Origin: Octopus vulgaris
Taxonomy: Eukaryota
Assembly: GCA_951406725.2 (NCBI GenBank)
Contig: OX597829.1
Span: forward strand, 53,754,001 to 53,818,000
DNA length: 64,000 nt
Direction: 5' to 3'
Positions 3,601-62,712 of this stretch are shown here, piece after piece (the stretch's first letter is position 1; each line of letters opens with the position of its first letter). The position numbers and the translations under genes are program-made. The notes under the pieces were generated by a model. That model worked only from the letters and a program-made list of their open reading frames with translations, was not told where the DNA came from and searched no databases.

Positions 3601-4189
3601 ACTAACCATTTTGCCTGGTGTGCAAACAGTTCTTTCAGCTCATCACCATAAATTTGTCAGAATATTCAAAGAAGATCATAAAATGACTTGCATACTTTTT
3701 CAAAATATTTTGAATACCAAAAATAAGTTTGAAATACTGGGTGGAGAAAGAAAAGAAGAAAAGGAAAAAAAACAAATTATAAGTATTAGTATTAGTTACA
3801 GTGACTGTGACTATGCAACCTAAAGTAGTTATTTCCCAAAAAGAAGGACATTGCAGTCTTTTTTGCTGAACCACCAAATCATAGGGACATAAACAAGCCT
3901 ACACTGGTTGTCAAACACATACACAAACTCACACACACACACACACATATATATTTATATATATATAAAATAGTAAATCCAAAAAATGAAGAATAAACAC
4001 AAAAAAAAAAGCACGAGGATGTGGTACATGTAAAATATTAGAAGACGCTCAGGAAAGGAAAGAAAGGTGGCTTAATGTTTCGAGCAGACGCTCTGCTTCA
4101 GAAACAAGAGATAGAGGAAAGTCCAACAGAAAAAGAAGATGGAGGAAAAAAATCGCCAACGATTCACATGTGGTTACATGTATATATGA

Positions 4190-4390
4190 GGGCGGTGAGC
4201 TGGCAGAATCATTAGCACACTGGGCAAAATGCTTAGCAGTATTTCGTCAGCCGTTACATTCTGAGTTCAAATTCCACTGAGGTTGATTTTGTTTTTCATC
4301 CTTTTGGTGTCAATTAAATAAGTACCAATTAATCCCTTTGTCTGCCCTTGTTTGTCCCCTCTATGTTTAGCCCCTTGTGGGCAATAAAGA
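4190..4390 (+). mobile_element. tRNA-headed SINE, family 1
   Basis: GGCGGTGAGCTGGCAGAATC...GAGTTCAAATTCC...AAGTACC...GCCCCTTGTGGG. Confidence 0.8.
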
Positions 4391-4684
4391 TATATATATA
4401 TATATACATAGGTGTGTGTGTAAGTATGTGTCAAAGTTAGATAAGGCTAGTTTATGGGAGTCATTGCTCTTCATCCGTCTGGAGTAGCTAGGCTTGCTAG
4501 CTGTTGATGCTTGTTCACCTTTGGAAACTTAAGGACACAGAACACTTGTATCACATAGCCAACTGGAAACGGTGTTTCCTGGGGCTAAATAACAGTAGCA
4601 TTCTTCCCTTTCATGGGACTTCCACATTAAGTTGGCAACAAACCATCACTTTATATATATATATGTGTGTGTGTGTACACACAC

Positions 4685-4846
4685 AGTGGGCTGCTTTCAG
4701 GTTCTGTGTACCAAATCCCCAAACAAGGCTTGGTCAGCACAGGACTAGAGTAAGTGACATTTGCCAAACATGTTACACAATGAGATCGAACCTGAGACCA
4801 TGTGGTCAAGAAGCAAACTTCTTACCACACAGCCATGCCTGCACCT
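4685..4846 (-). mobile_element. tRNA-headed SINE, family 2 (5' part, diverged)
   Basis: Reverse complement resembles GGCGCAGGAGTGGCTGTGTGGTAAG... of the 36729 copy. Confidence 0.7.
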
Positions 4847-5258
4847 ATTTTAAATTAAATAAAAATTCTAACATACTACTTTATTGAAGACATTATAATT
4901 ATTTAATTACCAATTCATTTTTTTTTTCAAAGCCAATTTTCCTATTCAATTATTCATTTCTTGCATTTTTTTTATGGGTTGAAATTTTTCTTCATAGCAA
5001 TTACTTTATACTTTTATTTGCCATTTGTGGGAGCTTTCTGATGGCCAGGATATTTTTTTTTTAATGACCACACGTTTTTCTGAGAAGTTGTTACATATTT
5101 TGACTTTTGTTTTGACTGAATTCATTCGCAGAGAATGAACTCAAGATGTAGATGTGATATTCTGATATTCTGTGTGAACATAACAGTATATATAAGGATA
5201 TGCATACTGAGTGAACATTGCTTTATATAAGCACTAAACTTTTCAGACTTAGCAAATA

Positions 5259-5766
5259 CAGTGATACCTCGCAGTACAAGTTTAATTTGTTCCATGACCG
5301 ACCTTGTCTTACGATTTACTCATTTTACAAATCAATTTTCCCCTTTGAAATTAACTAAAATATAATTAATTCATTCCAGCCCCCAAAAGACACTCAAAAA
5401 TAATCTTCTGTGGATTTTAAAACAAAAAAGGTGTAGCTACAAGTAAAATCACAATTATAAAAAAAAGAATGCATAAGAAATACATAAACTGGTTTTGGGG
5501 GTTGTGTTTTATGCCTTGACCTGAGCATAGAACGGGGCTTGCTCCTTTGAGCTGGGAAATGAATGGAATGCCTAGTGTGCGTCTTGCCACCTAAGAAAAA
5601 ATGGGAATAGGCCTGAGTATATGATATGATATGATTATTAATGAATTACCTTAAAGATGGGATGATTTGTGTGCTCATATTATGGATTTCCACTTGTACT
5701 TCAAGACAATAATTTGCATGAGTCTCAGCTCACACAGTAAATTACTTGTACTGTGAGGTCCTACTG
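5259..5766. mobile_element. Non-autonomous Tc1/mariner (Tigger-like) MITE
   Basis: Imperfect TIRs CAGTGATACCTCGCAGTACAAGT / ACTTGTACTGTGAGGTCCTACTG, both flanked by TA. Confidence 0.7.
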
Positions 5767-6049
5767 TAATTTAAAGTAATACTCTTTGTTATGATTATCT
5801 ATAGTCTTACAAGTATTGATAATTGCCTCTGCAATTCCATACTCTTCCTATAATTCACTCACATCAAGATCTCAAAGGTTACGGGCTGTGACTACATCAC
5901 TTAAGGAAAAATGGGAATAGGCCTGGGTATATGATATGATATGATTATTAATGAATTACCTTAAAGATGGGATGATTTGTGTGCTCATATTATGGATATT
6001 CTGCTTTACATTTTTTTAGATGCATCTAGAGTATTCCGAGTAAGGTTGG

Positions 6050-7540: not shown

Positions 7541-9782
7541 TAAGCTGGGACAAACAATTGTGAAAATAGCAACATACAAACAACACAAGTGATAACTTTA
7601 TTACCTGTCATACTATGTCGCTCACCTTCACTCTTTCCTGTATCAACAATTTCCACATGACAATGGCTTCATTTTTAAAAAGACTATATTTGCCTTATTT
7701 TGTTACTAATATAGAGCAGTAAAAGTTTGGTGTTAATATCTTAAAAACTGAGGTATACTAAAGCTGGATGCCTGGTAGTTATAATTTGGGGGTCTCCAAA
7801 AAGGGGAAAACACTTGGCTAAAGATGTCAACAAACAGGTTAGGATGCTTGGAACTACACTGTCAGATCTTAAGCTGGAAGTTTAACTATTCCAACATAAG
7901 CCTTTTTTTATTGTAATGTATCTAGTTATTTAGTCAAATATTAATTATAATAATAACAAAAAGTTTTAATTGATTTTCTTTCTTCTGCTAGCTTATTATG
8001 TATTCTCAGAGAATTTATGGTGGTAATAGTGTTTTTTGATGTCTATTTTTTAGTGCTTGGTGACACACAAGCCGGGCCCTTGTTATAATTATAAAATAGT
8101 TATTTAGTCATCTATATTTATAGCTACCACTCCTATATAATTATTTATCAACTTCGTTTAGTCATCTACTACTTGTAAGACAAATATTTAAATAACTTTA
8201 CTTGACACAAGAATTTTGCAACTTAATCTATCAAAAATTAAGCTCATTCCCAACTCATTATTTTAATATTTGGTCATCTGAAGTTTCAGAGTTCTCTCCC
8301 TTATCCACTTTTAGTTGAATCTTTAATGTTAATGAGTTTTCTCATTAAGAATATATAAATTCAATTGATTAAAAATTATTTTGGTCCCTATTTTAAATAC
8401 GTTTACCCATACTTAACTATATTTTCTTCAAGCAGAAGGCTTCCTTCAGAAATTTTACATATTTTGCATTTCATTTCATTTGAAAGGATACAATAAATTA
8501 AATATATAAAACAGTGACTAATTTGAGAATGGATTAAATATTGATAAAAATGTTTTGACTAAGTGCCAACACTTTTTCAAAGTCAAGAAATACTGTGCAT
8601 TTGAAGTAAGATAGCTTTAGAGAAGAATCAAAGCAATTATATCGTGAATTAGAGTCTTATTTCATATTGCTCATTGCAGATATTTGAAATGGTCAAAAGA
8701 GTGCTTTAATCCTTTTGCCAGAGATCAACCTCGGTTCCCTGATAGAAATTACCTGTTATAAATTTACCTAAATTAAAGCATTCCACCAAGATTTCATATT
8801 AATTAACATTCCAAACACCAGCTTAATAATAACCAAATTATTTTACTAAACTCTTTATTATTTTCAGAATAAACTTAAATAAAAGGTTTTAACAGAAATA
8901 AGGTAATAAAAGAGTTCAGATAAAATGATATATGCAAGATTTCCCCTTCAGATGTGAAACTATCTACAAACTATAAATGATAGTAAGGAAGATAGAATTT
9001 TAATATCTAATTACAATTAAAAATGCAAGTCAATGATTTTTCCCCCATTTATTTTAATCAAAATGTTCTGATTAAAATGTCCCATAATTTTTATGCAGAT
9101 AGGATTTGATATAAACATCTTTATCTTCCATCATAATTCCATTTACATCAAAGATCAGATACAGTTATACAATAGAAACCCTTCAACTTGGGCAGATTCT
9201 TCCACATTCTATACATGGCAGTAAACACCTCCAGTGGATCACTCATTACTGCATTTCAAAAAGCAAAGAACGCAGTATGTAATGTCTTGAAAAAAATGGC
9301 CCATCCCTATAAGCAAGACAGGTTTTAGTCAGTAATGCAACTCCTTCAAGACCAGCATCCAAAATGTGAAGGATGCAGTTGTGCATTATTCAGCCCACAA
9401 GCTTTCCTGCCTTTCAAATTGCAGCTTTTAATCTCTTGCCAAAAGGATATCTACCGATTTTGTGGGATCCTCATAATAATTTTGTAAGGAATATTTCCAG
9501 AGATAGTCCCAACATTTGCTACCTACTTTACATGCACCTAACAACACTACATATACCAGATAAATCTTCCCCAAACTATCCCTACACAGTTAAGTTCACT
9601 ACCACATACACCAAAAGCAAAAACAATTGCATTTCAATACAACAGGGCCACCAGCCCTAACAATATTCTTTCAATAACCCTCAAACACTATGTATCACAT
9701 CTAGCACTTATCCTTGGCAAGCAAGCTTTCCAGTCTCTCTACAGAGATAATATCCGGATTTTTGGAAACATACTTTAGTATA

Positions 9783-10176
9783 TTTACATTTGACAGATAT
9801 TTGTCCTTATCTTTGTTGTTAACACATTTTGGCTGATTTACCCTCCAGCCTTCATCAGGTGTCTTGGGGAAATTTTAAACCTGGGTTCTCATTCATAAGG
9901 TATTTTTTGATGTTATTATTCAAGTTACTGCCTGGAATCTTGAGGTTAGTAGCCCACGCTCTTAATCAATACACCATATACCCATGGGTATATGACCTGA
10001 ATAATAATAACATCGAAAAATACCTTGGGAATGAGAACCCAGGTTTTAAATTTCCCCAAGATACCTTAAGAAGCCTGGAGGGTATATCAGCTGAAATGTT
10101 GTGTTAACAGCAAACAAGATGAGGACAAATATCCACCAAATGTAAATAATTCCTCACCTCTTAAATATAGAACTGT
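9783..10176. mobile_element. Head-to-head dimer of a tRNA-headed, hammerhead-bearing short element with a 13-bp TSD
   Basis: Inverted arms at about 9783-9925 and 9995-10147, a central palindrome CATATACCCATGGGTATATG (9975-9994), and flanking direct repeats ATACTTTAGTATA at 9770-9782 and 10177-10189. Confidence 0.75.
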
Positions 10177-13100
10177 ATACTTTAGTATAGCCTGTTCCAA
10201 AAGCAGTCAATGCTTCTGATCCGGCAAACTATTACACTGAAGTTAATGGAAATTGCCGTCAACCTTCTCTGTTATTCTGAATCCTTCTTCTTCCTTAATG
10301 ACCATTAGTATGTAGGTTTTTATAAAGTCAGATCCATTGGAGACCTGTTGTCCAGTGTTACTACCAGTGGGCTCTTGCCCCTCAAGAAATTTGGCAGAAA
10401 CAGTGTTATTGCACGAGACATGAGCAGAGCATTTGATCAGGTGTGGCAAGTAAATCTCCTAGCAAACCTGGTTGCCCGTGCGGTTCAACCAGTTTCTTAT
10501 ATCAGTGACTTCTATTAAGCTGCAGCTTCATGGGATATGCAGAAGTAGACCAATGAGCTGCATTCTTTTAACTCTACAGTAATTCAATGTTCAATTCTAT
10601 CTCCTCTCAAACATTCTTTCCTACCCATCAATGGCCTACTTGCTATCACTCCCAGTAATCACTACACATATCAAGAAAACAATTACTTACAACTAGAATC
10701 TTCAATGTTTTACAAGTACTAGGCCTCACTATCATCGCTGAAGGTCTCTGCTGGAGAATACATTACCCTCAACAAAGACTAGGCTTTCTTTCTGGGTGAA
10801 AAAACAGAAATACATCAGCCCTCAACTACTAATCTCTTAAAATGGGAGTGCTGCTTCCACCTCTCGGATGGCGCTACTGTCAGTACACACACACACAGAC
10901 ATCAAAAGAAAGGTCCATCTACTCGAGTGATTGGCATGAAGGTTGCATGCAAACATACTCCAATACTCAACTTGTATCTTATCTTACCTGGATGGCTTTG
11001 TACTACTTCGATTATTCATTTTGTCAATCTCAATCCCTCTTTTCCAGATCACTCCTCATTCATTCCCCGATAGATATCGACTTGCAATTGTTCACTAACA
11101 TTATCTGCACCAATATAAATTAATCCGATTTGTGTGGTACTTTATCAACATGGGAACAATAAAAGAGAAAAACTGATTTTGGAGGGACCTATACTCAAAA
11201 TATGACAAGAACATAAACCAGCCCCTAATGATTTAGCTAATCTACCACTTTAATCACTGCAGTGAATACTTGATAGAATCAATCGTAAGATGACAACAGT
11301 ATTTATTTTGTTAATGCCAGAGAGATGTAGAATGACGACATCTACAAGTGAAATAATGAAAACCATCTAAACAATGCTTTGTTTCTGCCACCATTTTGCT
11401 ATTTTTGTAAGAATTGTGCAAGAGGAATGGTTCAATGTGAAAATCCAAATTCCATGTTTTAGCTGCTTTCATTTTGTGTGAGAGAGGAGGGAAAGAACTG
11501 CAAAAGGTCTGATTCTTGATTCTTAACAATAAAAGTCTTACATGAAAAGTAGATAAAATGAGAATCATTAATATATTTAGAACTTATTCTATCAACTTTC
11601 ATGGAATTTGTATATAAAATATGAAGAGATGAAATCTAGCTATTTCTCAACATTATTTTTTAAAACTTTTTTTTATCAAAAAGAATGAAAGACTAATTCT
11701 GAATTTAATAATGTAGTACCAAACGATGTTGACACTAAATAATATATCAGTAGAACAAACAATATTAAAGCTGATTTTGTTATGATCTTTAAGCAAAGCA
11801 TCTATTCTCAACACACCGAAATATTATCCCAATCACTTCACCTACAAGGAATAACAGTCAATTTTCCCATTTGACAGTTGTGGCAAGAATTCCTCTGATC
11901 ACAAACCACTTCAATCAAGACTAAACAACAAAGCAAAAAACAAACTTGCGATGGTTAATGTCTCCTCTCACAGCACACAAACTTATTTTACAAATTTCAA
12001 AGCATCCAAGTTAGCTGCAAACAATGCGAAAGATTTGTTATTTGCCTCAAAATGACAGGTCATAGATGCAAGAACCAAATATTTTCTAGCAGTATCTTTA
12101 GACCAAATCATCCAAACAGAATCCATACTGCTCTTCAAGTTATATGTTGAAATCTGCAAAGCAAAATGTTACTTGGCAATCTATATGAATGTGGTTTCCT
12201 TTTTTTTTTTTTTTCCAATCACTTTCTGTAAACCTGTTCATTTCAACGAGCAATTCCAGTTGTTTGAATAACTACAAACCAATTGAATTACATTGTACAT
12301 ATCTGAGCATTTCACATTTCTACACCATTAATATAATAATGCCCAGACAGAATCAGTGACAAGGCTGATCTTTTTTTCAAGTAGAAGTACAATTCATTCA
12401 ATGGGTTTCTATTTACCCAATTTTACTGACAAAGCATGGGTTAAACCCTAGACAATGGTAAAAGAGAATTGCCCAACATGCCAAGCAGTGGAATTGAACC
12501 CAGGATGAAATGACAGCAAAGCGAACCTTTTGACTTGACTATGTCTGATAAAGTAAGTGAATTGTCATTTCAGATTTAAACATTGTTCACTACACTATGC
12601 AAATGACAAAATATAAATTACTAATAGGGCAGCAAAATGATTGTCTGTTGCTCTACCGCCCAGGCCCAGCCCTTTGCATTCTGTGCCCAAGATGGATTTA
12701 CCTGTATATTTTAGACAAGTCATACGATTGAGTCACCCTGTGTACCTTAGACAAAACCAACAACACAAGTAAACCAGATCAACCTCATCAAGTGCAGCTA
12801 TTACTTTGAAATTTGATTTGCTAGTTTCAGGAAACTTTAAGAACTACGAGTCTATATTTTTTGTCTAAATATTGAATAGATTAAGAAAGGACCTTTTGGT
12901 AATTTGTTTGTGCAACAGGAGACAGACCAAACCAACTGGAATGAATATCAAAACATGGAAAGAAAAATCCACCAAAAAAACAAACAAACAAGAAAAGCTA
13001 ATGTTAACAGTACACAGGATTGATGAAATGAAAAGCAAAGTCAAACCTGACAATATCTGCAGTTCAAACATTAAGAGACATAACTAAAATCCACAAAGCA

Positions 13101-27780: not shown

Positions 27781-28348
27781 TTCGATCTACCCATGGGGCT
27801 TTTTAACTCCGCTTTATTTACTTCGAGATCCATCTTTCTAATATATAAATATACGTATATTTTAATGTTTCGCTTAGGCATCACGATACTAATAACCTGA
27901 TGTAGAACTCAATATACATATGGTTGAGAACGAAGCGTTAGTCGAGTACAGGGTTGTAATGAAAAATTGAGATGACAAAGGAATGGACAATTAATCTTGT
28001 GAATTTCCTTACAGTGGTCTCATAGTTGAGTGCTCGATTATCACTTTATAGCTTGATCAGAGCCTCACACATGAACTGCATATTTATTTGCGAAAACATT
28101 TACATTTATGCATATATACTCAGAAAAGCATTAACCACGTATGTGGTGTATGGAATCCAGGAGGTCTTCCCATAATCAGAATAAGATTACTTTTAAAGTG
28201 TGTATAAGAATAGATATACTAAGATGTAGAGAAACAGTAATAAGAAGTATCAGTAAAAATATGTGTACACACACACACACATACTCCGCTGCGTCTTAAA
28301 GCAGAAACAGCTGTAAGCTACAGTAGTTCGTTTATTCCTTTGTCAGCT

Positions 28349-29021: not shown

Positions 29022-29550
29022 TGAAAGATAATACAGACTTTCACACTGTTTCCGTCTACCAAATTTCAATTCGCAAAAGCACGTCTGGACTTTTTGACAT
29101 ATGCGATCTTTGTAAATAAAGGGCTTATTCATGTGGAATTGTTTGTTTACAATTTGCAGAGAGCGTGTCTGGGCTGTTTCTTGTTGAACACACTGGGAGG
29201 TTATTACATCACTTGGAAACAAATGTGGGTCAGACACAGGAAGGACATCCAACCAATGGAAACACTACCGCCAATATACTCTCATCTGGCCCATACAAGC
29301 ATGGAAAAGTAGATGATGAATACATACATCTTTTATCTTTTACTTGTTTCAGTCACTAGACTGCAGCCATGCTGGGGTACCACCTTAAACCCCAGCACTT
29401 ATTTTTTGAGCCTGGTACTTATTCTATTGGTCTCCTTTTGCTGAACCACTAAGTTACAGGGATCCAAACACACCACGCCAACACTAATTGTCAAGTAGTG
29501 GTGGGAGGCAAACAGAGACACACACACGTAGATATGTGCATATATATATA

Positions 29551-31464
29551 GGTAAAGGTGATGCCCTAGATACAAATAACTACAGGGGTATCAAAGTGTT
29601 GGATCAAGTAATGAAGGTTACGGAGAGGGTTATAGCCCAACTAATTAGAGAGAGAGTTAGTTTAGATGAGATGCAGTTTGGGTTCGTGCCAAGGAAAAGT
29701 ACTACTGATGCTATATTTCTGGTGAGACAGCTGCAGGAGAAATACCTAGCCAAGGATAAGGCCCTGTACCTGGCTTTTGTTGACATGGAGAAAGGCTTCA
29801 ACAGGGTCCCCCGATCCTTTATCTGGTGGTCAATGAGGAAGCTAGGGATAGATGAATGGTTAGTGAGAGCTGTGCGAGCCATGTACAGGGATGCTGCTAG
29901 TAAGGTGAAGGTTGGCAACGAGTACAGTGAAGAATTCCGGGTAGAGGTTGGGGTCCACCAAGGTTCAGTCCTCAGCCCCCTCCTATTTATCATAGTCCTC
30001 CAGGCAATAACAGAGGAATTCAAGACAGGATGCCCCTGGGAGCTCATCTATGCTGATGACCTTGCTCTAATTGCTGAGTCACTATCAGAACTGGAGGAGA
30101 AGTTTCAGGTGTGGAAACAAGGATTAGAATCGAGGGCCTTAGAGTCAACCTAGCTAAAACCAAAGTTCTAATAAGTAGGAAGGTAGACAAATCACAAACG
30201 CCTTCAGGTAGATGGCCCTGCTTGATCTGTTGAAAAGGCGTAGGTAGAAACTCTATAAGATGCACTAAGTGTAAGCTATGGACACATAAGAGGTGCAGCA
30301 ATGTCAAAGGAAGGCTAACTAGGAAAATAGTTTTTGTATGTGGCAGGTGCTCAGGAGCAATAAACACTGAAAATGTGCAGAGACCAACTTCCACCACATT
30401 CCAGGGAGAAAAACTAGAAATAGGTGATAGCTTCTGTTACCTAGGTGACCAAGTCAGTAGCGGGGGTAGGTGTGCTGAAAGTGTAACTGCTAGAGTAAGA
30501 ATAGCTTGGACAAAGTTCAGGGAGCTCTTACCTCTGCTGGTGACAAAAGGCCTCTCGCTCAGAGTAAAAGGCAGACTGTATGGTGCATGTGTATGAACAG
30601 CCATGCTACATGGCAGTGAAACATGGGCCATGACTGCTGAGGACATGCATAAGCTGGCAAGGAATGAAGCCAGTATGCTCCGATGGATGTGCAATGTCAG
30701 TGTTCATACTTGACAGAGAGTAAGTACCTTGAGAGAGAAGTTGGACCTAAGAAGCATCAGTTGTGGTGTGCAAGAGAGACATTTGTGCTGGTATGGTTAT
30801 GTGACGAGAATGGATGAGGATAGTTGTGTGAAAAAGTGCCACACCCTAGCGGCTGAGGGAACCTGTGGAAGAGGTAGACCCAGGAAAACCTGGGATGAGG
30901 TGGTGAAGCACGACCTTCGAACTTTAGGTCTCACCGAGGAAATGACTAGAGACCGAGACCTATGGAAGTATGCCGTGCGTGAGAAGACCCGGCATACAAG
31001 TGAGACCATAACCCATGGCCTCTACCTGGGATGTAGCCAGTCCACTTATGCATACCTTTCCTTCTTGGGACACAAAACTCTACATGTGAAGACTTGAGGC
31101 AAGTGAGAATCAAAATCGAAATTGATCAACATCAATGGACATTGCAGCTGTGATACCAGTGCTGGTGGCACGTAAGCGAACCATCCAAACGTGGCCGTTG
31201 CCAGCCTCGACTGGCCCCTGTGCCAGTTGCATGTAAAAAGCACCATCCGACCGTGGCTGTTTGCCAGCCCCGTCTAGCACCTGTGCTGGTGGCACATAAA
31301 AAGCACCCACTACACTCACGGAGTGGTTGGCATTAGGAAGGGTATCCAGCCATAGAAACATTGCTAGATCAGACTGGGCCTGGTGCAGCCTTCGGGCTTC
31401 CCAGACTCCAGTTGAACCATCGAACCCATGCTAGCATGGAAAGTGGACGCTAAACGATGATGAT
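29551..31464 (+). mobile_element. 5'-truncated RTE-clade LINE (RT, 3' UTR, (GAT)n tail), frameshifted
   Basis: ORFs 29488..30153 (QFGF, AFVDMEK, GVHQGSVLSPLLF, YADD), 30375..30596 and 30729..31097 (GRGRPRKTW); ends ...GGACGCTAAACGATGATGAT. Confidence 0.93.
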
Positions 31465-31888
31465 ATATGATGGTCTCCTTCCTGTTTCTGTCTACCAAAT
31501 CCAATCACATGGCTTTGGTCAGCCCAAGGCTATAACAGAAGACATTTACCCTAGATGCCACAGAATGGGACTGAACCCAGAACCATGTGGCAGGGAAACA
31601 AGCTTCTTACCACACAGCCGCACCTGTGCCTATGTATATTTCATTTAGGTACAGTGTTAGAATGTTAGCACTTGGTATACACATGCTTCAAAGAAAAGTG
31701 TTACTCAAGTACAGAGTGTAATAAGAGATTATATAAATGACAAGAGAACAAGGAATTATATTATGAACTTCATTAGCTTACAGCTGTTTCTGCTACAGGA
31801 TACAATGCACTCATAGATGAATGTTTGTGTATGACCTTGTAGCTTCAGAGCTTCAAAAACACACACACACATATATATATATTTATAT

Positions 31889-33526: not shown

Positions 33527-33573
<47 letters not shown>

Positions 33574-37739: not shown

Positions 37740-38974
37740 TGAGGTGTAGTCAAAAAGTATCCAACCTTGATTTTTTTTCACAAAATGATAATGCGTGAGC
37801 AAAATCTGCATGGGTATTAGGTGGCCGTGTCCTTCTTGAGCATGTGCAAAAGTTTTCATATCTGTAGGTTGTGCCATTCATCCACAGTGATGTGTTCAGT
37901 ACAGATGTAAAGAGTGTGCTGTGTGATTTTTCTTTTTGGATCAAGATGACTGCGGGCATTGAGCAAAGATACTGTATCAAATCCTGCCAAAAACTTGGTG
38001 ATACACAAGCCAAGATTATTGAGAAAAATCAGAAGACCCTTGGAGATGATGCTATGGGAAAAAAACAAATAAAGGAGTGGTTCAAAGGTGGCCCCACCTC
38101 AGTGGACAGTGAGCCATGTTGTGGCAGACCATCGGCTAGCAGAAATGGCAAAATGGTTGCAAAGTTTCGAGATTGTTGCCAAAGTTAGAATCAGCCATGG
38201 ATCTGTTTAGTCAATTATAACAGAAGATTTGTACATGAGGAGGGTGTCGGTCAAGTTCATACCAAAGTTGCTGTCTGACCAGCAGGAAGAAAGCAGAAAG
38301 GAAATCTCCCAGGATATGCTGGAGTGTGCTAGCCAAGATCAAAACTTTATGAACACTATCATCACAGGTGATGAGATGTGGGTATATGGCTATGACCCTG
38401 GAACAAAACTGCAACTATCCCAATGGAAGCATCCGTCCTTGCAAAGATCAAAGAAAGCAAGACAGGTGTGCAGCAATATTAAACTGATGATGACTACAGA
38501 AGTATTGTGCACCATAAGGTCAGACAATTAACAAAGAATACTACCTGGATTTTCTCTGTTGCCTTCATGAAGCTGTGCAGCAAAAATGGCCCAACCTGTT
38601 GGCAGCAAAGAACTGACAACTGCATCATGACAATGCACCTGCTCATTCCGCCCACATCATCCAAGCAAAACACACCACTTGTATGTCAGGTTTGCTACTC
38701 CCCAGACTTGGCTCCATGTGACTTTTGGATATTCTCAAAGCTCAAAAAGATACTCAAAGGGAGAAGATTTGAGTCAACAGAGGACATTAAGCAAAATCTG
38801 ACAGCACAGCTCTACAGCATCTGGAAAAGTGATTTCCAGAAATGTTTCCAGCAGTAGCAGGAATGCTGGCAGAAATGTGTAGACTCACTTTGGAGGAGAC
38901 TCAATCAATTTGGTGATTTTTTTAATATTACTTGTTTTTTGACCAAGGGTCAGATACTTTTTGATTATACATCA
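37740..38974 (+). mobile_element. mariner-family DNA transposon with decayed transposase
   Basis: TIRs TGAGGTGTAGTCAAAAAGTATC / GATACTTTTTGATTATACATCA with TA flanks; peptides EQRYCIK, IITGDEMWVYGYDP, HDNAPAH, YSPDLAPCDFWIFSKLK. Confidence 0.92.
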
Positions 38975-39161: not shown

Positions 39162-40095
39162 AATATTATTAAGCAAGAAAAAGGAGAGATTTAATGAATA
39201 AAATTAATTTAATAATTAATTAATATTGCCTACAATTGTGTCTATTTGCAGTCAATTGAAGATTTTGGGTGGAATATCGGGTTGAGACATTTTAACAGAT
39301 TGAGTAGATGAGAGGATGTTTAGTTATTTGCATGTGTGTGTGTGAATTAATATTTTTCTTAAAATATATAAAAGTATTAAAATATGTAATATGCGCATGT
39401 AAAAATACAAATACAAATAAAATAAAATATGTAAAAGTAAATAATATTATCTTTTATTTACTATTTAATAACATACACATATTTAATACACACGCACACA
39501 CACACATACAAATTAACATCTATTTGTAACAGTTTTATTTTTAGTTGAATTTTTACTTTATTTTATTTATATTTAATTTTATTTTTACTTCTATTTTTAT
39601 TTTTATTCATTTATTATTTTTATTTATTTATATTATATATATTTTTCATCTTATCCTTATTTTTTATTTTATTTTATTTATTTCCATATTAATTTTTATT
39701 TATTTTATTACATTTATTACCTTTTATTATTATTTTTATTATTTTATTTATGTCTGTATGTTCATACTCTGAATATTTTTTATCTTTATTTTTATAAGTT
39801 TTATTAATATTTATCATTTTTATTTTATTTTTATATGTGCATATTACATATTTTAATACTTTTATACATTTTATTTTATATCTCAAGAAAAATATTAACA
39901 CCCACACACACACCCACATCCTCTCATCTACTAACTCTTTTAAAATGTCTCAACTGGTCAACATGTAATTTCCTTAACGTCCTTTCACCCTGATGATATT
40001 CCACTCAAAATCTTCAACTGAGTGTGAATTGAAACAATTGTAATTAATACATTAATTTTATTCATTAAATCTCTACCTTTTTTTGCTTAGATATT
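39162..40095. mobile_element. Fold-back element with inverted arms, each carrying a hammerhead-like motif (Penelope pLTR-like)
   Basis: Arms at about 39162-39420 and 39815-40095 are reverse complements around an AT-rich spacer. Confidence 0.7.
39987..40045 (+). ncRNA. Hammerhead ribozyme-like motif
   Basis: CUGAUGA-UAUUC-CACUCA[loop]UGAGUG-U-GAAUU-GAAA-CAAUUG-UA; catalytic core intact, but the stem I 3' strand is lost in this arm. Confidence 0.55.
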
Positions 40096-40482: not shown

Positions 40483-41682
40483 GGCGTAGGTAGTAACTCT
40501 ATAAAATGTACCCAGTGTAAGCTATGGACAAATGAGAGGGTGCAGCAATATCAAAGGAAGGCTAACTGGGAAGATAGTTTTTGTATGTGGCAGATGCTCG
40601 GGAGGAATAAACACTGAAAATGTGCAGAGAACAACTTCCGTCACATTCTAGGTGGGGGGGGGGACTAGAAGTAGTTGATAGCTTCCATTACCCAGGGGAC
40701 CTAGTCAGTAGCAGGTTGAATGCTCTGATAGTGTAGCTGCTAGAATAAGAATAGCCTGGGCAAAGTTCAGAGAGCTCTTACCTCTGCTTGTGACAAAGGG
40801 CCTCTTGCTCAGAGTAAAAGGTAGACTGTATGACTCATATGTACGAACAGCCATGCTACATGGCAGTGAAACATGGGCCATGACTGCTGAGGACATGTGT
40901 AAGCTTGCAAGGAATGAAGCCAGTATGCTCCACTGGATGTGTAATGTCAACATATATATACTCGACAGAGTGTAAGCGCCCTGAGAGAAAAGTTGGATTT
41001 AAGAAGCATCAGATGTGGTGTGCAAGAGAGACGACTGTGCTGGTATGGTCATGTGGCATGAATGAATGAGGATAGCTGTGAGGAAAAGTGTTACACCCTA
41101 GCAGTTGAGGGAACCTGTGGAAGAGGTGTAAACCCAGGAAGACCTGGTATGAGGTGGTGAAGCATGATCTTTGAACATTAGGTCTCACTGAGGCAATGAC
41201 AAGTGCCTGAGGCCTTTGGAGATATGCTGTACTTGAGAAGAGCTAGCAAGCCAATTGAAACCATAGCCATAGCCTATGCCGGTGCTGTATATCCAGCCCA
41301 TGTAAGAGTACCCTTCAATCATAGGACAATAAACTATGCTTGCAAAGACCTGTTGAGGTAAGTGAATTCATTGTCGTGGCTGATGACAGTACCACTTGAT
41401 TGGCATTCATGCCAGTAGAACGTTGAAAGCACCATGTGAGTGTGATCGTTGCCAGAGCCGCTGACTGGCTCCCTTGCCAGTAGCATGTAAAAAGCACCAT
41501 TAGAGTATGATTGTTGCCAGCGTTGCCTGAGTGGCACATAAAAACATCATTCGAATATGGCTGTTGCCAGTGCTGCTGGACTGGCTCCTGTGCAGCTGGC
41601 ACATAAAAAGTACCATTTGAGTGTGGCCAATGACAGTACTGCCTGTGGCACATAAAAGCAATCACTACATAGTGGTTGGTGT
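40483..41682 (+). mobile_element. RTE LINE 3' fragment (decayed)
   Basis: Similar to 30237-31340 (VKGRLYD..VRTAMLHGSETW). Confidence 0.85.
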
Positions 41683-41739: not shown

Positions 41740-42441
41740 CAGTAGTGGTTCATATATAGGAACTGTGGAACTGCAGCACCCCCTATTTCCACTCGATATT
41801 GTTGATAACATTTAATATAATGAGTCCTTTTTTCTTTAATTCATTCTTTATACTTGTACATTAAATAATCCTTAAACTTAATGTCTGTAGCCATCCCCTA
41901 GTTTATGAAAAAAATACAGAAATCCTTGTATAGAACTGTGCGTTTCACAGCTCCAGTGATGCGGTGTTTGGCTATTGTGTGCATGATCACATGTCCGAGA
42001 TAGGAAGCTTCATACTAGGGAGAGAGAACACTGTGGTTCACACAGTCTCGAGTGAAAGGTAGTGCTTCTTTTTCACTTTGCGTGTGTTGTGCTTAAAAAC
42101 ATGTTTATATTTTTGAATGTGATAAAGTGTAGAATTAGATTATTATTCTGCTTCCAGATACAATATTGCTGTCAGAATTTGAAAAATAGGGCAGATTTCA
42201 CACACCCCACTCCTTATTTTGTGATTTAGGGGCTATTTTTGAAAAACAAAGAGGAATTTACGGCAGTGTTCAGCGAACAAATTAAACATACTCCCTGGCA
42301 GAGACTAAAACGTGAACTGATCAAGTTTATGTATAAATTTTCGTTTTATACATTGGTTTCCTTTTACATAATATTAAAACAAGAGCTAAAAATTTTCTGA
42401 AGCAGCACCACCACTAATTTTATCTTCGAGTGCCTCCACTG
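41740..42441. mobile_element. Non-autonomous hAT-type element
   Basis: Short TIRs CAGTAGTGG / CCTCCACTG and an 8-bp direct repeat CATACATA at 41732-41739 and 42442-42449 (in a simple-repeat context). Confidence 0.6.
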
Positions 42442-42469
42442 CATACATACACACACACACACACACATT

Positions 42470-43148
42470 CTTGTATGTAAACAAACAGCAATTGTACATG
42501 GGAGCAAGACATGGGCCCTGAATGCAGAGGACATGAGAAGGCAAGGGAGAAATGGAGCTAGTATGTCCCACTGGATGTGTAATGTAAGTGTACATGTTCA
42601 ACAGACTGATAGTGTATTGAGAGAGAAGTTAAGTATAAGAGGAATTAGATGCTGTGTGCAAGAGAGAAAACTGTGCTGGTTCGGTCATGTGATGCAGATG
42701 GATGCTGACCGGTTCATAAAAAAGTGCTAATCTCTCAAAGTGGGTGGAACATGTAGAAGAAGAAAACATGGGACAAAGTAATGAAGGATAACCTCAAGAT
42801 GCTGAAGCTTTCAGACAAGATGATGAAAGCCTGAGGAAGACCTGTGCTCCACAGCAGAAGCGTTAAGGCTGGTTCCTCTGATGAGGAGGATTGGCCTGCA
42901 AGAGTCCTATGCTGGTGCCAAGAAAAAAAGTGCTTGTGCCCATGCCATGTAAAAGCACTTTTGCTGGTGCCACATCATAAGCACCCAGCACACACTGTAA
43001 AGTGCTTAGCATTAGGAAGGGCATCCAGCCGTAGAAACCAGGTCACATCAGATTGAAACCTGGTGCAGCTCTCCAGCTTACCAGTTCCAGTCAAGTTGTC
43101 TAACCCATGCCAGTATGGAAAATGGACATTAAGTGATGATGATGATGA
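42470..43148 (+). mobile_element. RTE LINE 3' fragment with (GAT)n tail
   Basis: WMCNVSV...LCWFGHVM peptide plus the conserved 3' UTR. Confidence 0.8.
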
Positions 43149-43399
43149 AGATTATATATATATATGGAAAAAAAGTCAAGATAGAAAATGCTAAAACAAT
43201 TTTATAAAAAAACATTTCAGTACCGGTTTCAGTCATTGAGACTTTTTCAACTTTAAGTATGGAAAACAATTAAATTTGGAAAAGTTAAAAGAAAAGTTTT
43301 TTTAAAAGAATATTGGCATAGTATTCAAATCCAAGTGGCATTTTCCTTGTTTCTGCCTGTCTCTGTCTCTCTTGTTTACTCTTGTGGGTTCGAGGTAGG

Positions 43400-43783
43400 G
43401 AAGAAGAAGAAGAAGAAGAAGAAGAAGAAGAAGAAGAAGAAGAAGAAGAAGAAGAAGAAGAAGAAGAAGAAGAAGAAGAAGAAGAAGAAGAAGAAGAAGA
43501 AGAAGAAGAAGAAGAAGAAGAAGAAGAAGAAGAAGAAGAAGAAGAAGAAGAAGAAGAAGAAGAAGAAGAAGAAGAAGAAGAAGAAGAAGAAGAAGAAGAA
43601 GAAGAAGAAGAAGAAGAAGAAGAAGAAGAAGAAGAAGAAGAAGAAGAAGAAGAAGAAGAAGAAGAAGAAGAAGAAGAAGAAGAAGAAGAAGAAGAAGAAG
43701 AAGAAGAAGAAGAAGAAGAAGAAGAAGAAGAAGAAGAAGAAGAAGAAGAAGAAGAAGAAGAAGAAGAAGAAGAAGAAGAAGAA
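43400..43783. repeat. Pure (GAA)n tract, about 128 units
   Basis: 384 bp uninterrupted. Confidence 0.97.
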
Positions 43784-43899
43784 GGAACCAATGTGGGAGT
43801 ACCATGACAGTCGTATGGTCAGACCCGAAAATGTGGAGGGTAGTAGTAACTGTTCAATTCATGAAACATCTCTTTTGAATGTTTTGTTTATAAAATTTG

Positions 43900-50369: not shown

Positions 50370-50602
50370 AGAAAGATAGATAGACAGACAGATAGATATG
50401 TAGAAAATTAATATAAACAGCAGTTTGCTATGTTTCACAAAAAGGAGATTTACAAATGTCACAAGATGTGTCTAGGGTGTTAGGAAGCACCTACATTGCT
50501 AGAAATAAGAGTCAAATCGCTCTCATGCAGTAGTCAATGCACATGAAGGAAAACACATAGACCAACAAGGACCATAATTGTTCGAAAAGTACTCAGTGAG
50601 AA

Positions 50603-50658
50603 TTTTAAAAACTGATGCATCAGTTTCACAGCAATTTCTGCTGCCTCATCAGTTAAGA
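50603..50658 (-). ncRNA. Hammerhead ribozyme-like motif, best-preserved copy
   Basis: UUAA-CUGAUGA-G-GCAGCA[GAAAU]UGCUGU-GAAA-CUGAU[GC]AUCAG-UU-UUUAA: intact core, 6-bp stem II, palindromic stem III, weak stem I. Confidence 0.65.
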
Positions 50659-51129
50659 CAGCTCATCTTCAGCTCTTTCTGGACTTGCTTCGCCATTAGT
50701 ATTTATGTGTTCATCATCCAAATAATTGGATGATTTAGTGATTCACTAATATATATAAGTATATATATATTGTTTGTATTCCACCTGCCTTCGTCTTTTG
50801 TTTATTTCTGTAAACCTGCCTTCGTCTTTTGTCTATTTTCATAAAGCTTCCGTTTATATAAGTATATATATATATATGTATGTAAACATATATATATATA
50901 TATATAATGTGTGTGTATATATATATATATATCAGACTGGAGCCTGGTGCAGCCTCCTGGCTTCCCAGACCCCAGTCGAACCGTCCAACCCATGCTAGTA
51001 TGGAAAACGGACGTTAAATGATGATGATGATGATATATATATATATATATATATATATGAGTATATATGTGTATATATATATATATACACACTCACACAC
51101 GTGTAATATAAATACATACACATATGCAT

Positions 51130-53578: not shown

Positions 53579-54188
53579 TGAAGCACCATCCGCTCGTGTC
53601 CGTTACCAGCCTCGCCTGGCCCCCGCACCGGTAGCATGTAAAAGCACCATCCGTTCGTGTCCATTGTCAGCCGCGCCTGGCCCCCGTGCCGGTGGCACGT
53701 AAAAGCACCATCCGTTCGTGGCCGTTTGCCACCTCTGTCTGGCCCCCGTGCCGGTGGCACGTAAAAGCACCATCCGTTCGTGTCCGTTGTCAGCCTCACC
53801 TGGCCCCCGTGCCGGTGGCACGTAAAAGCACCATCCGTTCGTGGCCGTTTGTCAGCCTCTGTCTGGCCCCCGCGCCGGTAGCACGTAAAAGCACCATCCA
53901 TTCGTGGCCGTTGTCAGCCTCGCCTGGCCCCCGTGCCGGTGGCACGTAAAAGCACCATCCGTTCGTGGCCGTTTGCCAGCCCTGTCTGGCACCTGTGCAG
54001 GTGGCACATAAAAAGCACCCACTACACTCACGGAGTGGTTGGCGTTAGGAAGGGCATCCAGCTGTAGAAACATTGCCAGATCTGACTGGGCCTGGTGAAG
54101 CCTTCCAGCTTCACAGATCCCAGTTGAACCGTCCAACCCATGCTAGCATGGAAAGCGGACGCTAAACGATGATGATGATGATGATGAT
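53579..54188 (+). mobile_element. RTE LINE 3' UTR with 7 tandem ~61-bp units and a (GAT)n tail
   Basis: AAAGCACCATCC recurs at about 53581, 53641, 53702, 53765, 53826, 53888 and 53949, followed by the standard tail. Confidence 0.88.
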
Positions 54189-55789: not shown

Positions 55790-56226
55790 AACCCTAACCC
55801 TAACCCTAAAACCCTGACCCTAACCTTAAAACCTTAACCCTAACCCTAAAACCTTAACCCTAACCCTAAAACCCTACCCCTGACCCTAAAACCCTAACCA
55901 TAACCCTAAAACCTTAAAGCTAAAACCAGTATAAACGAACGAACGATGTCATATATAACAGTGACAAACGAAATATACACCACCGGAAATTCTTGTTGAC
56001 AAACAACAGGAGTAATTTTATTCAGCTGAATATACGTCATTGATTGGTTGAAATTACCGAAATACGACAACTTTGACGTGAAATAACTTCGTAAATATAA
56101 GTTTTTCTCTAAAATGCTAAGAGTAAAACATGTTCTATATGACACATTCTACCAGTGTCCGAAGTTTGAAAGTGTTTAGTTACAAAAAAATATTTTTTAA
56201 ATCTGTAGGTCAAAAGGTAAAGATCC
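55790..56226 (-). mobile_element. Repeat element with GGATCTT terminus and degenerate telomere-like (TTAGGG)n
   Basis: CCCTAA-type units at 55790-55920; 56035-56226 is homologous in reverse complement to 62832-63020. Confidence 0.6.
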
Positions 56227-57599: not shown

Positions 57600-59245
57600 A
57601 AAGAAATGGTTATCTTTGAGTAAATGCGAAGAAACGACCTAATTTTTAAAAGATAGCAGTAATAATCAGGCAGTGAAATACATACCACGGGGAAAATTAC
57701 TATACATACACCATGGCGACGAAAGAACCTGGAGAGGGCTATTGCAGATTGAAGAACTATCAAGAAAAAGTCCAGGGGAGGTTTCGAATTGAACCAATAC
57801 CATCTCTACGGAAAGTTTAGGCAAGATCCCCCGATAGGCTACATTAAGAGACTTGCATCTTGGGATTAAAAAATACCCAACATTCTCAATTTTTTCAGAG
57901 AAACAAGGACGCCCCCAAACTAGAAAGGTACTGACCATAACCGATAGGATTTATACGAGAAGCAGTGGTGGTAGAGGCATGAGGCCTTTGAATGCCATAT
58001 TGTACAACTCAGACAACACCTGAACAGTAAAGAAAGAAACGAGTACATTCCATGCATACTCAAAATTGAGAGCAACAACGTCTTTAGAGTTGGAGAAGAA
58101 CTACTGTGCAGGTACTCTGAGAATACAGCTATCTCATGCGACCCAAAAGGGGGCTGAACTGGCCTGCCATGATAGATCGTTAGCTCCTAAACGCATTTTT
58201 TTCTCTCCTTGTTTTTTTTCTGTGTATCTTTCTGTTGAAGAGCGTAGGCTCGAAACATAAAAGACTTTTTCTATTTCTATTCCTGAGCGCTATACTAATG
58301 CATTTGTTTGTACTCCACCTGCCTTCGTCTTTTGTTTATTTTCGTAAATTTTCCCGTTATCTAAACAGAAGCTTTGAGAAGAGGCATCATACCAGCAAAA
58401 AGCAATGCATGCGTACATATCCTGTAAGCTAGAGGATAACAACTACATTAACAGAAAGAGTAGCCTCTCCTCAAACTGTGAAAGATACATTACATCCCAC
58501 GTAGAAGAATATGGCTTCGTTATCCCGAAACAGGAGATAGCTACTAAATATTTAGTAAACAAGAGAGACATAAATACCACCAAGCCTCTACGTTGTGATA
58601 GAAAATGTCAGTTCTGCTATACCAGAGTGGAAGATATTCTTTTCTACTCTTGGCATAAGGCACGAAATTTTGAGGGAGGGGGTCAGTCGATTAGATCAAC
58701 TCCAATACGCATCCGGTACTTAATTTATCGACCCCGAAATGATGAAAGGCAAAGTCGAGCTCGGCGGAATTTGAACTCAGAACGTAAAGACAGACGAAAT
58801 GCCTATTTCTTTACTACCCACAAGGGGCTAAACAGAGAGGACAAACAAGGATAGACAAACGGATTAAGTCGATTATATCGACCCCAGTGCGTAACTGGTA
58901 CTTATTTAATCGACCCCGAAAGGATGAAAGGCAAAGTCGACCTCGGCGGAATTTGAACTCAGAACGTAACGGCAGACGAAATACCGCTAAGCATTTCGCC
59001 CGGCGTGCTAACGAGGCAGGCACCATATCATCATCAGCTGTCCCCAACTGTCTACAAGATATTATCCACCCTGAGGCATGATATAGTTGAAATGACTATT
59101 TGCAATGTTGTCCGCAAGAAGGATTGCTCTGGCGTACATATCAAAAGCATGTATTCATACCTTTAAAAACAAGGAATACTGGTGGAACAGTAATAAGAAA
59201 CATCAGTTCGATGCAAACATAACAGACCTGATATTGTTGAAATTC
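57600..59245 (+). mobile_element. Old RLE-type (R4/Dong-like) non-LTR remnant interrupted by younger repeats
   Basis: DRIYTRSSGGRGM, KCQFCYTRVEDI | HIIS, RHD and EYWWN remnants parallel the motifs of 32428..33522. Confidence 0.6.
58637..59012 (-). mobile_element. tRNA-headed SINE, family 1, dimeric/nested
   Basis: Same structure as 3215-3600. Confidence 0.85.
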
Positions 59246-60300
59246 TTATGTGAATAGATGCACGCATGGAAGTGCATCAACAAATCAACCAACACTCAAA
59301 ACTTCTTGTCGCTTTGTTAGCGATTGGCTTAAACTTTCTTAAAAAGAACTTAAAAAACTAAAACAAGACAAAACAAAATATGAATACCTACACACACACA
59401 CGCATGAGAAAAAGATAAAAGAAAATATGCTCGCATTCATATAAATAAATGTGTGTAATTAATCAAAAAACTTGTTCAACGATGTGTTCATCTTCTCTGC
59501 ATGTACTAGTTCTGAGTATTCTTTTCTTGATGTCGAAACTGAAGCCACATATCATCTGTACCATTAATAAAATGATCGGTATTCTTGGCACAAGTACAAT
59601 ATTTATCTATAACTATGAACCACAAGAGAATGTAAATATAGCCGTTGCATATCGTTATCATGGTGTTTTGTTTATGATTTTCTAAAGTTATAAATAAAGC
59701 AAAAATGTATTCGAAGAAGCGAGGATTATTCCTACTTATTACAGAAAAGGAAATTGAAATAGAACCTTTTTTGTTTGTTTTTGCGGCCTCAAAAATAGAC
59801 CACCATCGATACTAAAAGAATTGCGCCAAATGTCTCTCAACACAGAACGGAGGGAACGAATAAGTGGTGCAAAATGATTTCTTGTTATTTTCTCCCTTCC
59901 TGTTTGAAACTATTACATTGCAAGTATTGCATCATCATTTTGTATTGCTACATTATATTTAGGATTAAAAATTGGTCAGCATAAGTTGTTGCTACTGAAG
60001 ATGAGAGAGTTGGAAACATAGTCCAGTAGTAGGTCTTTTTTTTTTCTTCCCTTTTTTTCAAGAAACTGAGGATGCTAATAAAAGATATGGATAATTTTTG
60101 TTGATTAGCAATAAAAATTCTTTTCTCTGTTGAATTCCAAATCGATCTTTTCCCACACCAAAGTCTAAATTGATAATTTTTACAAGTGTCAAAAATTGTC
60201 TAACCTGGAGCAAAATGAGTGATGGCTAATTTCTATACTTTAATAGCATGGTGCTACTCCAGCAGATCGTGAAGAAGTTCTAGAGAATATTTTATATTGA

Positions 60301-60496
60301 TACAGTTCTATATTTAAGAGATGAGGAATTATTTACATTTGACGGATAATTGTCCTCATCTTGTTTGTTGTTAACACAACGTTTCGGCTGATTTACCCTC
60401 CAGCCTTCATCAGACGAAGGCTGGAGGGTATATCTACCGAAACGTTGTGTTAACAACAAACAAGATGAGGACAAATATCCGTCAAATGTAAATAAT
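60301..60496. mobile_element. Palindromic copy of the 9783-10176 family, centred on the hammerhead
   Basis: Arms 60328-60408 and 60416-60496 are nearly perfect reverse complements with a 7-nt loop. Confidence 0.8.
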
Positions 60497-61516
60497 GTAT
60501 ATTAATATTGAGTTTTTAGATTGAGCCGAGTTTGGTTAATTTCGTGTCGTGCTGTTTTCTCATCATCTTTCATTTGACCAAGATTTGTTGATTTTCTAAT
60601 CTTTTTGATGTTTAAGAATGGATATTGATGTGTATGAATCTTTTCTCAAATGTAATTCTGGAGAATAGAAAAGGAAAATTTACCTTATTTTGTCTTACTC
60701 CTTTTGCTCCAGCTAATTTTTTTTCTTTTATATGCTCAAAAAGGACAATAATTTTCTGAAATGGTGTTCTGAATATGTAATAGTGTTTTTAATGCATTCA
60801 AAGACGGTAATTTCCTTAGCTGATATAGTTTTTTGTAAGGCGGTGAACATTTGTAAAAAATATTTTTTCTCAATCTCAAAAATGCAGTAAATATAATTCA
60901 TTGTGCCCTACCCCTTACCAAAAATTGCACCGAGTGACTCTCAACAGAATATACACAACAGAGATGACACGTGCCTTAGTAGACAATGGATATGTTAATC
61001 GCAATTAGTTCTTTACAGAAAATGTTATTAACAAAAGGGGAACTTGGATACGTAGGACGGTTACCATACAGTTTAGTGTCGTAAAATATTGAAAGTAATT
61101 ACCCTTAAAATAAATAAAAGTATTTTGCGATAGAAACCGGGTGTGACGACAGTGATATACCTAAATTTCAGGAAACACGTTTGTTATCTGATGGGTAAGG
61201 TTTCTTTTGCGAGTCTCGGCAACTTCTATACTCAGTTTTGGAGATCCAAATGACGACAGTATCCATAAAAGACTATAGAAGGGTGATGGATGCTCGCCAA
61301 GAAGAAAATTAGGCAACAATGTGGGAATACTGATGATTATTTTAACATCATATTTTCACGAGCATTTGTGGCGAAACAAATTTAGAGATCGCGAAAGACT
61401 AATTAAGAATCTCATTTCGTGCAACAATGACAGCTATGATTTCCCGTAAAAGTGATTCTTTGTTCTTATATAAATCATAAGTACGGTTTTTATGTTATAT
61501 TAAATATATATACATT

Positions 61517-61719
61517 TGTGGGTTTATCCTATATACAACACAACTGTACTTCGTAAAGGCGGGATGGGGGGCTTATCAAAGGGATCCTACATACAACACA
61601 ATTGTACTCCGTACAGGGGGACTTATCAAAGGGATAGCTACACAAAGTCTGTAGTACGTATCATTTTGACAATTCCTCTGTACGGAGTACAATTATGTTG
61701 TATGTAGGATGAACCCACG
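61517..61719. mobile_element. Short MITE-like inverted repeat with an internal tandem duplication
   Basis: GTGGGTTTATCCTATATACAAC... / ...GTTGTATGTAGGATGAACCCAC. Confidence 0.65.
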
Positions 61720-61735
61720 GGTTGACTATAAGGTT

Positions 61736-62063
61736 ATGGATGTAGTGTATCGCTGACGTTATGCTGATGGACGGTGCCAAAACATGACAACTACGTACAT
61801 TGGAGAGACTGCACGCAGCATAGGAGAGCGTATAGGTGCACATTGGCGAGAGCTCAGAGAAGAGAAAAGCTCGTCAGTTATCTACTAACATGCTCAGGCA
61901 GAACATGGAGGCTCAATTAATAGCATAGAGGTTAATGTATTATCGACGCATAGAAGTGACACGACACTCAGACAGATTACAGAGGCTACGCATAGCAGTA
62001 GATAGACCGAGCCTCAATAGAAAACACGAATGGAACAATAATACCTCCCACCACACCACATGA
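61736..62063 (+). pseudogene. Penelope-like element GIY-YIG endonuclease remnant
   Basis: DVVYR*RY...C...YIGETARSIGERIGAHW...*HAQAEH...LRQITEA(fs)I...PSLNRKHEW. Confidence 0.8.
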
Positions 62064-62669
62064 CTAAAGACAGATAGGAAGAAGAGAGAGAGAGAGAGAG
62101 AGAAAATAAATCGTAAATAACACACAGATACATACAGAGTAATACACACAATAGACATACATGCACTTACCCGTGATACATATTAGAAATAGAGAGAGAT
62201 AAATAAATAAATATATTTGTCACATACCTGTGACATGTAAAAAATAGAGATAGATAAAATATATAAATGTATAAATCTATATAAAAGGCACGGACACAGA
62301 CAACATACGAAGCGAACCCATACACACAAGAAATTTCACAAACGGCCACAACAATATCAACTACACGAATAACAACGACAGCAGCAGCGGCAGTGGCAAC
62401 GATGGCAATGACAACAACAACTACCATGATGGCAATACGCGAGGCGAACACAGAGGGATTCAGGAACTATACCAAATTTTCGGGTCTTAGGACAACAGCA
62501 GCACAATGGAGCTGAGGGGAAGGACATACTGCTGCTAAGAACAGTGACACACACACATACATACGCACGCACACAAACACGGATGCAAACGCATGCCCAC
62601 TTAAGGATATACATCATAGAAGAACAGAATGGAGTAAGTGGAGCAAGAGCACACGCAAAAACGAAAAGT

Positions 62670-62712
62670 GTCACTGAAGAGGTCACAGATGTGTGACGAA
62701 AGATTTCCGGAC
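62670..62712 (+). ncRNA. Hammerhead ribozyme-like motif downstream of the PLE endonuclease
   Basis: GUCA-CUGAAGA-G-GUCACA[GAUG]UGUGAC-GAAA-GAUU-UC-CGGAC. Confidence 0.62.

Follow-up and report, generated by a model that had tools for sequence, protein, structure and literature searches.

Minimal hammerhead-like motifs of seven repeat families in the Octopus vulgaris genome and their relation to Penelope-like elements

Introduction

A stretch of 64,000 nucleotides from Octopus vulgaris (assembly GCA_951406725.2, contig OX597829.1, positions 53,754,001 to 53,818,000; the window in what follows) raises the question of why repeats with no other similarity should share the layout of a hammerhead ribozyme: a core (CUGANGA or a variant), a stem II hairpin, GAAA, a short stem III segment, UH, and stem I. 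A sequence-only reading had noted ten such sites and had proposed that the genome hosts many short ribozyme-carrying elements. We followed these sites through the genome. Very probably, the motifs are decayed, minimal type I hammerhead-shaped copies of seven families, four of them situated at the 3' ends of Penelope-like elements and the other three likely copied by the same enzymes.

The motifs belong to dispersed repeats

All ten sites show the order of core, stem II, GAAA, stem III, UH, and stem I that had been described for them. We refer to the families as A (sites at 9821 and 60373), B (58227, with the site at 4070 in a related subfamily, B2), C (39987), D (43218), E (50603), F (62670), and G (28301 and 31774). 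The recurrence of the motif across repeat families was confirmed by genome searches (2.8 Gb, 227 contigs): all seven sites belong to repeats dispersed through the genome, every search gave matches for 40 of 40 scored candidates, and first-look candidate counts ran from at least 75 (C) to at least 2,900 (F). Family majorities, built from 20 to 30 copies each, restored the motif in every family. The family form was intact in 20 of 29 loci for A, 19 of 24 for B, 5 of 19 for C, 14 of 19 for D, 3 of 24 for E, 11 of 24 for F, and 1 of 19 for G, which implies that C, E, and G are old or that the search patterns for these three were strict. Because copies decay after insertion, covariation within families was not used; we relied on comparisons between families and subfamilies instead.

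An exact core with a paired stem II, GAAA, a self-complementary stem III, and UH occurs in three window copies (cores at 60413 and 50652 on the minus strand and 62674 on the plus strand), against a mean of 0.03 and a maximum of 1 over 60 local dinucleotide shuffles. A strict full descriptor, written after the families were known and allowing variant cores, gave 24 matches in the 396,000 flank bases of 220 loci, compared with 0 to 1 in each of eight shuffles; these 24 represent about 22 places, as two duplicate an already counted place, and a number of them are partners of the copy that had been selected. They include eleven motif types beyond the seven families, with little sequence in common. 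Likewise, a B-type pattern matched the genome 20,003 times and its reversed control pattern 0 times.

Anatomy of the family motifs

The family majorities of A, C, E, F, and G carry the exact CUGANGA core, and that of D carries a compensated U3-A8 swap. Family A has an extra A, stems I and II of 5 bp, stem III ACGU, and U at position 17; family B has U6, an extra A, a 4-bp stem II, a 5-bp stem I, and again ACGU in stem III. The exact core of family C is joined to a long stem II with a U-U base, and family D closes stem II with A-U. Family E has a canonical core, a 6-bp stem I, a 5-bp stem II, and a 5-bp hairpin stem III. Family F combines its exact core with an extra G and a weak stem III, and family G has a full core and a long branched stem II with A facing A at the base, C4 being present in 4 of about 10 readable copies. 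The G10.1-C11.1 pair that closes stem II is found in A, B, E, and F. Among B-type copies, every one of the four bases occurs at position 7, and 29 of 30 copies have A, U, or C at position 17, variation of the kind that a hammerhead permits.

Several details of the sequence-only reading had to be adjusted. The extra purine ascribed to four families is clear in A, B, and F, but E lacks it in its family form; D has no extra base, and the base after A9 in C and G faces a mismatched base before G12. The sites at 4070 and 58227, paired as one family, are B-related but fall into different subfamilies (75% identity to a third copy). As for the two "half motifs," 28301 is a 3' half; the family itself has a full core and a long stem II, and the copy at 31774 is short of three core bases.

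The palindromic nature of stem III in most families holds: it is a perfect palindrome in A, B, C, D, E, and G and self-complementary in F only via G-U pairs. As a hairpin, stem III has 0 to 2 pairs in seven of the eight forms tested (all but E). As a self-duplex, its predicted energy is -1.7 to -11.1 kcal/mol in A, B, C, D, and G, and favourable in E as well.

As a separate observation, about ten further intact hammerhead-like motif types were seen in the flanks of loci L265, L049, L156, L278, L279, L046, L285, L038, L097, L158, L153, and L151. They have differing stems and a palindromic stem III; two have U3-A8 and one has C4.

Penelope-like parents of families B, F, D, and A

When loci were chosen by protein alone, the B motif lay 490 to 1140 bases 3' of the endonuclease match on the same strand in 29 of 30 (one partial). 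At locus L228, the B motif is preceded by an 826-codon frame with a Pfam RVT_1 match (reverse transcriptase, RT) above the cut-off (E 1e-7). Downstream of a second endonuclease peptide, an F-related motif was found in 27 of 30 loci, and family F itself is preceded by endonuclease remnants both in the window and in 3 of 24 further loci. For family D, RT and endonuclease frames lie upstream in L312, and endonuclease profile matches lie upstream in 4 of 19 other loci. In L228, L226, and L312, the RT shares a single frame with a GIY-YIG domain at the C terminus, the GIY-YIG of L228 scoring below the Pfam cut-off.

The young F-type element at L226-L227 (G000:C19:14370500-14388500) is repeated head to tail in units of 4587 bp that are 99.6% identical. 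The array contains a 1311-codon frame and an inverted end; the motif stands about 530 bases after the stop and 126 bases before the next open frame. The 1311-codon protein matches the B and D proteins by BLAST (E 4e-8 and 7e-13), and the assignment of this frame to Penelope-like elements rests on that similarity together with the motifs. Because identical scores over the endonuclease region are shared by many copies in the genome, this 4.6-kb element may be active. We also observed that its frame is intact and has a long low-complexity N-terminal part.

In family A, loci were chosen by the head of the repeat; in 5 of 30, the 3' end of an endonuclease frame is found directly upstream. The order is coding frame, a 76-base segment with matches to a transfer RNA (tRNA)-type A box and B box, an (AAT)n run, and the ribozyme-like motif. 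Both boxes were matched by the usual consensus patterns in all three heads tested, and a 26-base piece of the head occurs exactly 1,149 times in the genome. The head is not called as a tRNA (ARAGORN, 0 of 30 loci and 0 of 2 at a lowered threshold; no Rfam tRNA match). Copies bearing the head end within 7 bases upstream of it in 25 of 30 cases and run on into the coding frame in the other 5; the clustered ends could come from a short polymerase III transcript or from fold-back at a 4-bp hairpin located there. We dropped the idea of a pure short interspersed element (SINE), because coding sequence lies directly upstream of the head. These data support family A as the end repeat of a coding element, with SINE-like offspring a possibility.

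The location of A, B, D, and F just 3' of GIY-YIG frames indicates that they are ends of the pseudo-long terminal repeat (pseudo-LTR) kind and not separate short elements. Thus, the suspected Penelope link is direct for four of the seven families. "Many short ribozyme-carrying elements," on the other hand, describes A, B, D, and F poorly, which are mostly 5'-truncated pseudo-LTR ends of coding elements; family E does look stand-alone. Only one of the two endonuclease remnants claimed for the window was recovered (about 61600-62051), and it is of the same kind as the endonuclease of the L226-L227 element; a second was not found by motifs, tblastn, or two home-built profiles.

Second copies on the opposite strand accompany A in 24 of 30 loci, C in 13 of 20 (three locus pairs being one place seen twice), D in 5 of 20, F in 6 of 25, and G in 6 of 20. 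For C and G, this insertion shape, a variable 5' end plus an inverted partner, is the only Penelope-like feature.

Proposed explanation

The motif lies downstream of a frame encoding RT and GIY-YIG and, in the tandem array, also just upstream of the next frame; its position, the tandem and inverted layout, the truncation, and the decay were all observed directly. We propose that target-primed reverse transcription would begin about 100 to 250 bases 3' of the motif, inside the RNA (PMC4209133, PMC8557442, PMC11167929). Early stops would leave mainly motif-bearing ends, often with an inverted second arm, beside a microsatellite. In source elements, the short palindromic stem III would be unable to form within one copy; it would pair between two copies in a tandem transcript, or form with the help of the element's protein, and the RNA would be cut into units. 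Such cleavage of dimers is suggested by the literature and by the folding energies. The scattered single copies of the window are likely dead passengers.

Opposing results and alternative explanations

A number of results weigh against this reading, and we consider them here together with the explanations that they favor. The strict descriptor had 0 matches within the window (shuffle mean, 0.1), a scan that allowed one core mismatch and required stem I had 2 against a shuffle mean of 0.6 and hence no enrichment, and Rfam reported a hammerhead neither in the window nor in 8 loci that mostly hold intact copies. Because of the last two results, the window alone is suggestive and not decisive; the comparison with shuffled sequence that had been proposed thus came out in favor of the motifs in the flanks and for exact cores in the window, but not in the one-mismatch scan. 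Most window copies are defective besides, as would be expected if the motifs were chance matches picked by eye in AT-rich repeat DNA. Yet the family majorities repair the defects, the strict descriptor and the B-type pattern far exceed their controls, and the motifs hold a fixed position behind endonuclease frames. We therefore regard the chance explanation as already refuted and give it practically no credence.

Other opposing results concern the parents. No endonuclease frame was seen within 1.5 kb upstream in 20 C loci and 20 G loci, for which no dedicated upstream search was made. An endonuclease remnant lies upstream in 1 of 25 E loci; a DNA search with this remnant gave no clear second example, and we rejected the link as unsupported. 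The GIY-YIG scores fall below the Pfam cut-off, the 1311-codon F-type frame has no Pfam match at E 0.1, and family B has no inverted upstream copy in 25 loci. Most families might instead be independent non-coding retrozymes that spread via small circular RNAs. Family E suits this best: it is a non-coding unit of about 355 bp with a near-canonical ribozyme and a 5-bp stem III, partially or fully duplicated in direct orientation in 9 of 25 loci and accompanied by inverted copies in 6 of 25, and it resembles the 170- to 400-nt tandem units of retrozymes (PMC7229834). From its sequence, E looks like a stand-alone 355-bp retrozyme. However, no array longer than two units was seen among the 25 loci, and A, B, D, and F extend upstream into protein-coding frames, which refutes the retrozyme explanation for these four; as an account of most families, we judge it improbable.

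The remaining points concern catalysis. U6 is present in 96 of the first 100 B-type matches listed (of 20,003 in total), and C occupies core position 9 in 25 of 27 copies of a young F relative; both cores are therefore non-standard, and both belong to very successful families. The stem III self-duplex is weak in F (0.0 kcal/mol) and in the young F relative (+1.4 kcal/mol). A phage ribozyme with A6C cleaves slowly (PMC3088659). In the study of an anole element, the ribozyme cut only with protein, core mutants inserted normally in vitro, and no RNA sequencing reads ended at the cut site (PMC11167929). It is conceivable, then, that the fold persists chiefly because the Penelope protein uses it as a signal for binding or positioning, with cutting weak, protein-dependent, or dispensable. 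The compensated U3-A8 of family D and the avoidance of G17 fit the needs of catalysis instead, and the standard core is kept in about ten further motif types. We treat the binding signal as a genuine possibility that falls short of being probable; it is compatible with a Penelope-like origin of the motifs and differs on function only.

A bolder and rather doubtful extension would be that in the most prolific Penelope lineages, with altered catalytic cores (U6, about 19,000 pattern matches; C9, 99.6% identical), the fold serves as a protein-dependent switch or an RT docking signal instead of acting as a free ribozyme, and that in one lineage the tRNA-type promoter makes the end repeat self-transcribing and SINE-like, to be copied by Penelope enzymes.

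Comparison with known systems

The basic observation is not new. Animal genomes contain thousands of minimal motifs each, in many consensus families and mostly as single truncated copies (Cervera and de la Pena 2014, PMC4209133). The metazoan Penelope-like minimal type I hammerheads described there share with ours the order of the core, an extra base between 9 and 10.1, the palindromic stem III, U3-A8, and opposite-strand pairs, which lie 100 to 700 bp apart. U6 in family B, C9 in the young F relative, and the lack of the G10.1-C11.1 pair in C, D, and G differ from that description as compared here, and the supplements may hold such variants. Natural U3-A8 pairs are on record, and a U4C variant was weak in vitro (PMC3088659).

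Endonuclease-bearing Penelope-like elements (PMC8557442), including Poseidon_Ac (PMC11167929), have the same frame of RT and C-terminal GIY-YIG, tandem units, an inverted 5' copy, a one-sided tail of 30 to 40 nt, and a hammerhead in the pseudo-LTR. Unlike the elements as described in these two sources, the family A repeat starts with a tRNA-type A box and B box. The SINE-like Sm-alpha elements of Schistosoma (PMC6765202) resemble family A in that a polymerase III-type promoter is followed by a hammerhead; in contrast to them, as reported there, family A has a minimal stem III and, in 5 of 30 loci, forms the 3' repeat of a Penelope-like element that codes for protein.

Non-LTR retrozymes of animals (PMC7229834; bioRxiv 10.64898/2026.07.22.740005) are like family E in the non-coding unit, the near-canonical type I ribozyme, and the partial tandems, and an axolotl family shares with family C a stem II that has a U-U pair at its base (bioRxiv 10.64898/2026.07.22.740005). 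Family E departs from the retrozymes as described in being known here from DNA alone and in consisting mostly of monomers with partial duplications and inverted ends. Among cephalopods, 235 Rfam hammerheads have been reported for a squid genome (PMC6962438), and a study of octopus repeats lists 31 recently active Penelope-like families in a main text in which the word "hammerhead" does not occur (PMC13282606).

A search of titles and abstracts, with subscription journals, Repbase, and supplements outside its scope, found no paper on these families, octopus hammerheads, an A6U core, or a tRNA-type promoter in a Penelope repeat. The finding is real and mostly ordinary; less familiar are family B with U6, C9 in the young F relative, and the tRNA-type promoter in the family A repeat. 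In Penelope-like elements, the hammerhead by itself is a poor cutter, and one in vitro system did not need it for insertion. About 18 natural motif types are available in this genome as a test panel, and some of them sit in elements that are young, intact, and equipped with a protein of their own. All of these motifs are missed by Rfam, and some repeats that are likely to be annotated as SINE or unknown are Penelope ends.

Features of the window

The sites of the window are collected in Table 1. With inverted partners included, the remnants number about 14, in agreement with the dozen or so motifs estimated earlier.

Table 1. Hammerhead-like motifs and associated features in the window
Feature	Position	Strand	Description
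Family A insertion	9770..10189		Two arms, back to back, flanked by a 13-bp direct repeat (9770-9782, 10177-10189); decayed tRNA-like heads of both arms meet near 9985; 31-nt tail at 10148-10178, right arm only
Family A hammerhead-like motif	9821..9863	-	Intact core; G12 lost; stem III decayed
Family A inverted partner	10060..10105 (approximate ends)	+	Decayed core; absent from the earlier list of sites
Family A motif	60373..60413	-	Exact core, extra A, 5-bp stem II, stem III ACGU, H17 = U; fold-back junction in place of the 5' strand of stem I
Family A inverted partner	60413..60499	+	Begins within the core; tail on the other arm at 60300-60330
Family B motif	58227..58264	+	Core with U6 and an additional A; stem II of 4 bp, stem I of 5 bp; stem III reads ACAU through decay of ACGU
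B2 (B-related subfamily), decayed copy	4070..4105	-	
Family C motif	39987..40045	+	Exact core; stem II long and interrupted, its base a U-U; stem III ACAAUUGU; 11 bases with the 3' strand of stem I lost
Family C inverted partner	39194..39278	-	Without core
Family D motif	43218..43253	-	U3-A8 variant of the core; stem II of 4 bp with A-U as closing pair; stem III ACCGGU; family stem I of 3 bp
Family E motif	50603..50658	-	Canonical core; within a copy of the 355-bp unit (about 50410-50740)
Family F motif	62670..62712	+	Exact core with an additional G; stem II of 6 bp; stem III with wobble pairs
Disrupted GIY-YIG endonuclease frame from a Penelope-like element	about 61600..62051	+	Stops and frameshift; about 620 bases 5' of the F core
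Family G motif	31774..31851	-	Long branched stem II, stem III ACAGCUGU; 3 core bases missing in the window copy
G-type motif, 3' half	28301..28320	+	
G-type 5' half with near-core	28010..28074		Inverted relative to 28301-28320

The window is AT-rich and rich in microsatellites and retrotransposon fragments. At 32428-33528 (-) lies the 3' part of a non-LTR element, 366 codons long, which matches zf-RVT weakly; its apparent restriction-like endonuclease is presumably of the R4/Dong type. The (AAT)n run of family A holds insertions in L018 and L252 that may be of the same kind. Pieces of an RT-encoding non-LTR element, which we take to be RTE-like, occur at 29488-31097 (+), 40800-41130, and 42400-42760 (RVT_1, E 3.8e-27), and a related non-LTR 3' end with (ATG)n is repeated at 36382, 43077, 50962, 52651, 54110, and 54679. 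Broken frames at 35367-35942 (-) and 37868-38857 (+) resemble, by eye, Tc1 and mariner transposases.

Among the simple and tandem repeats, a (GAA)n tract of 128 perfect units (43400-43784) lies in the 3' untranslated part of the family D element. A degenerate interstitial (AACCCT)n telomere-like repeat with 20-bp units occupies 55790-55929, and a GC-rich tandem repeat of 61 to 63 bp, from an abundant dispersed element, is found at 53581-54019 and 31180-31307. Finally, a young fold-back insertion at 34378-34848, outside the seven families, has 158-bp arms that are 98% complementary and a spacer of 155 bases.

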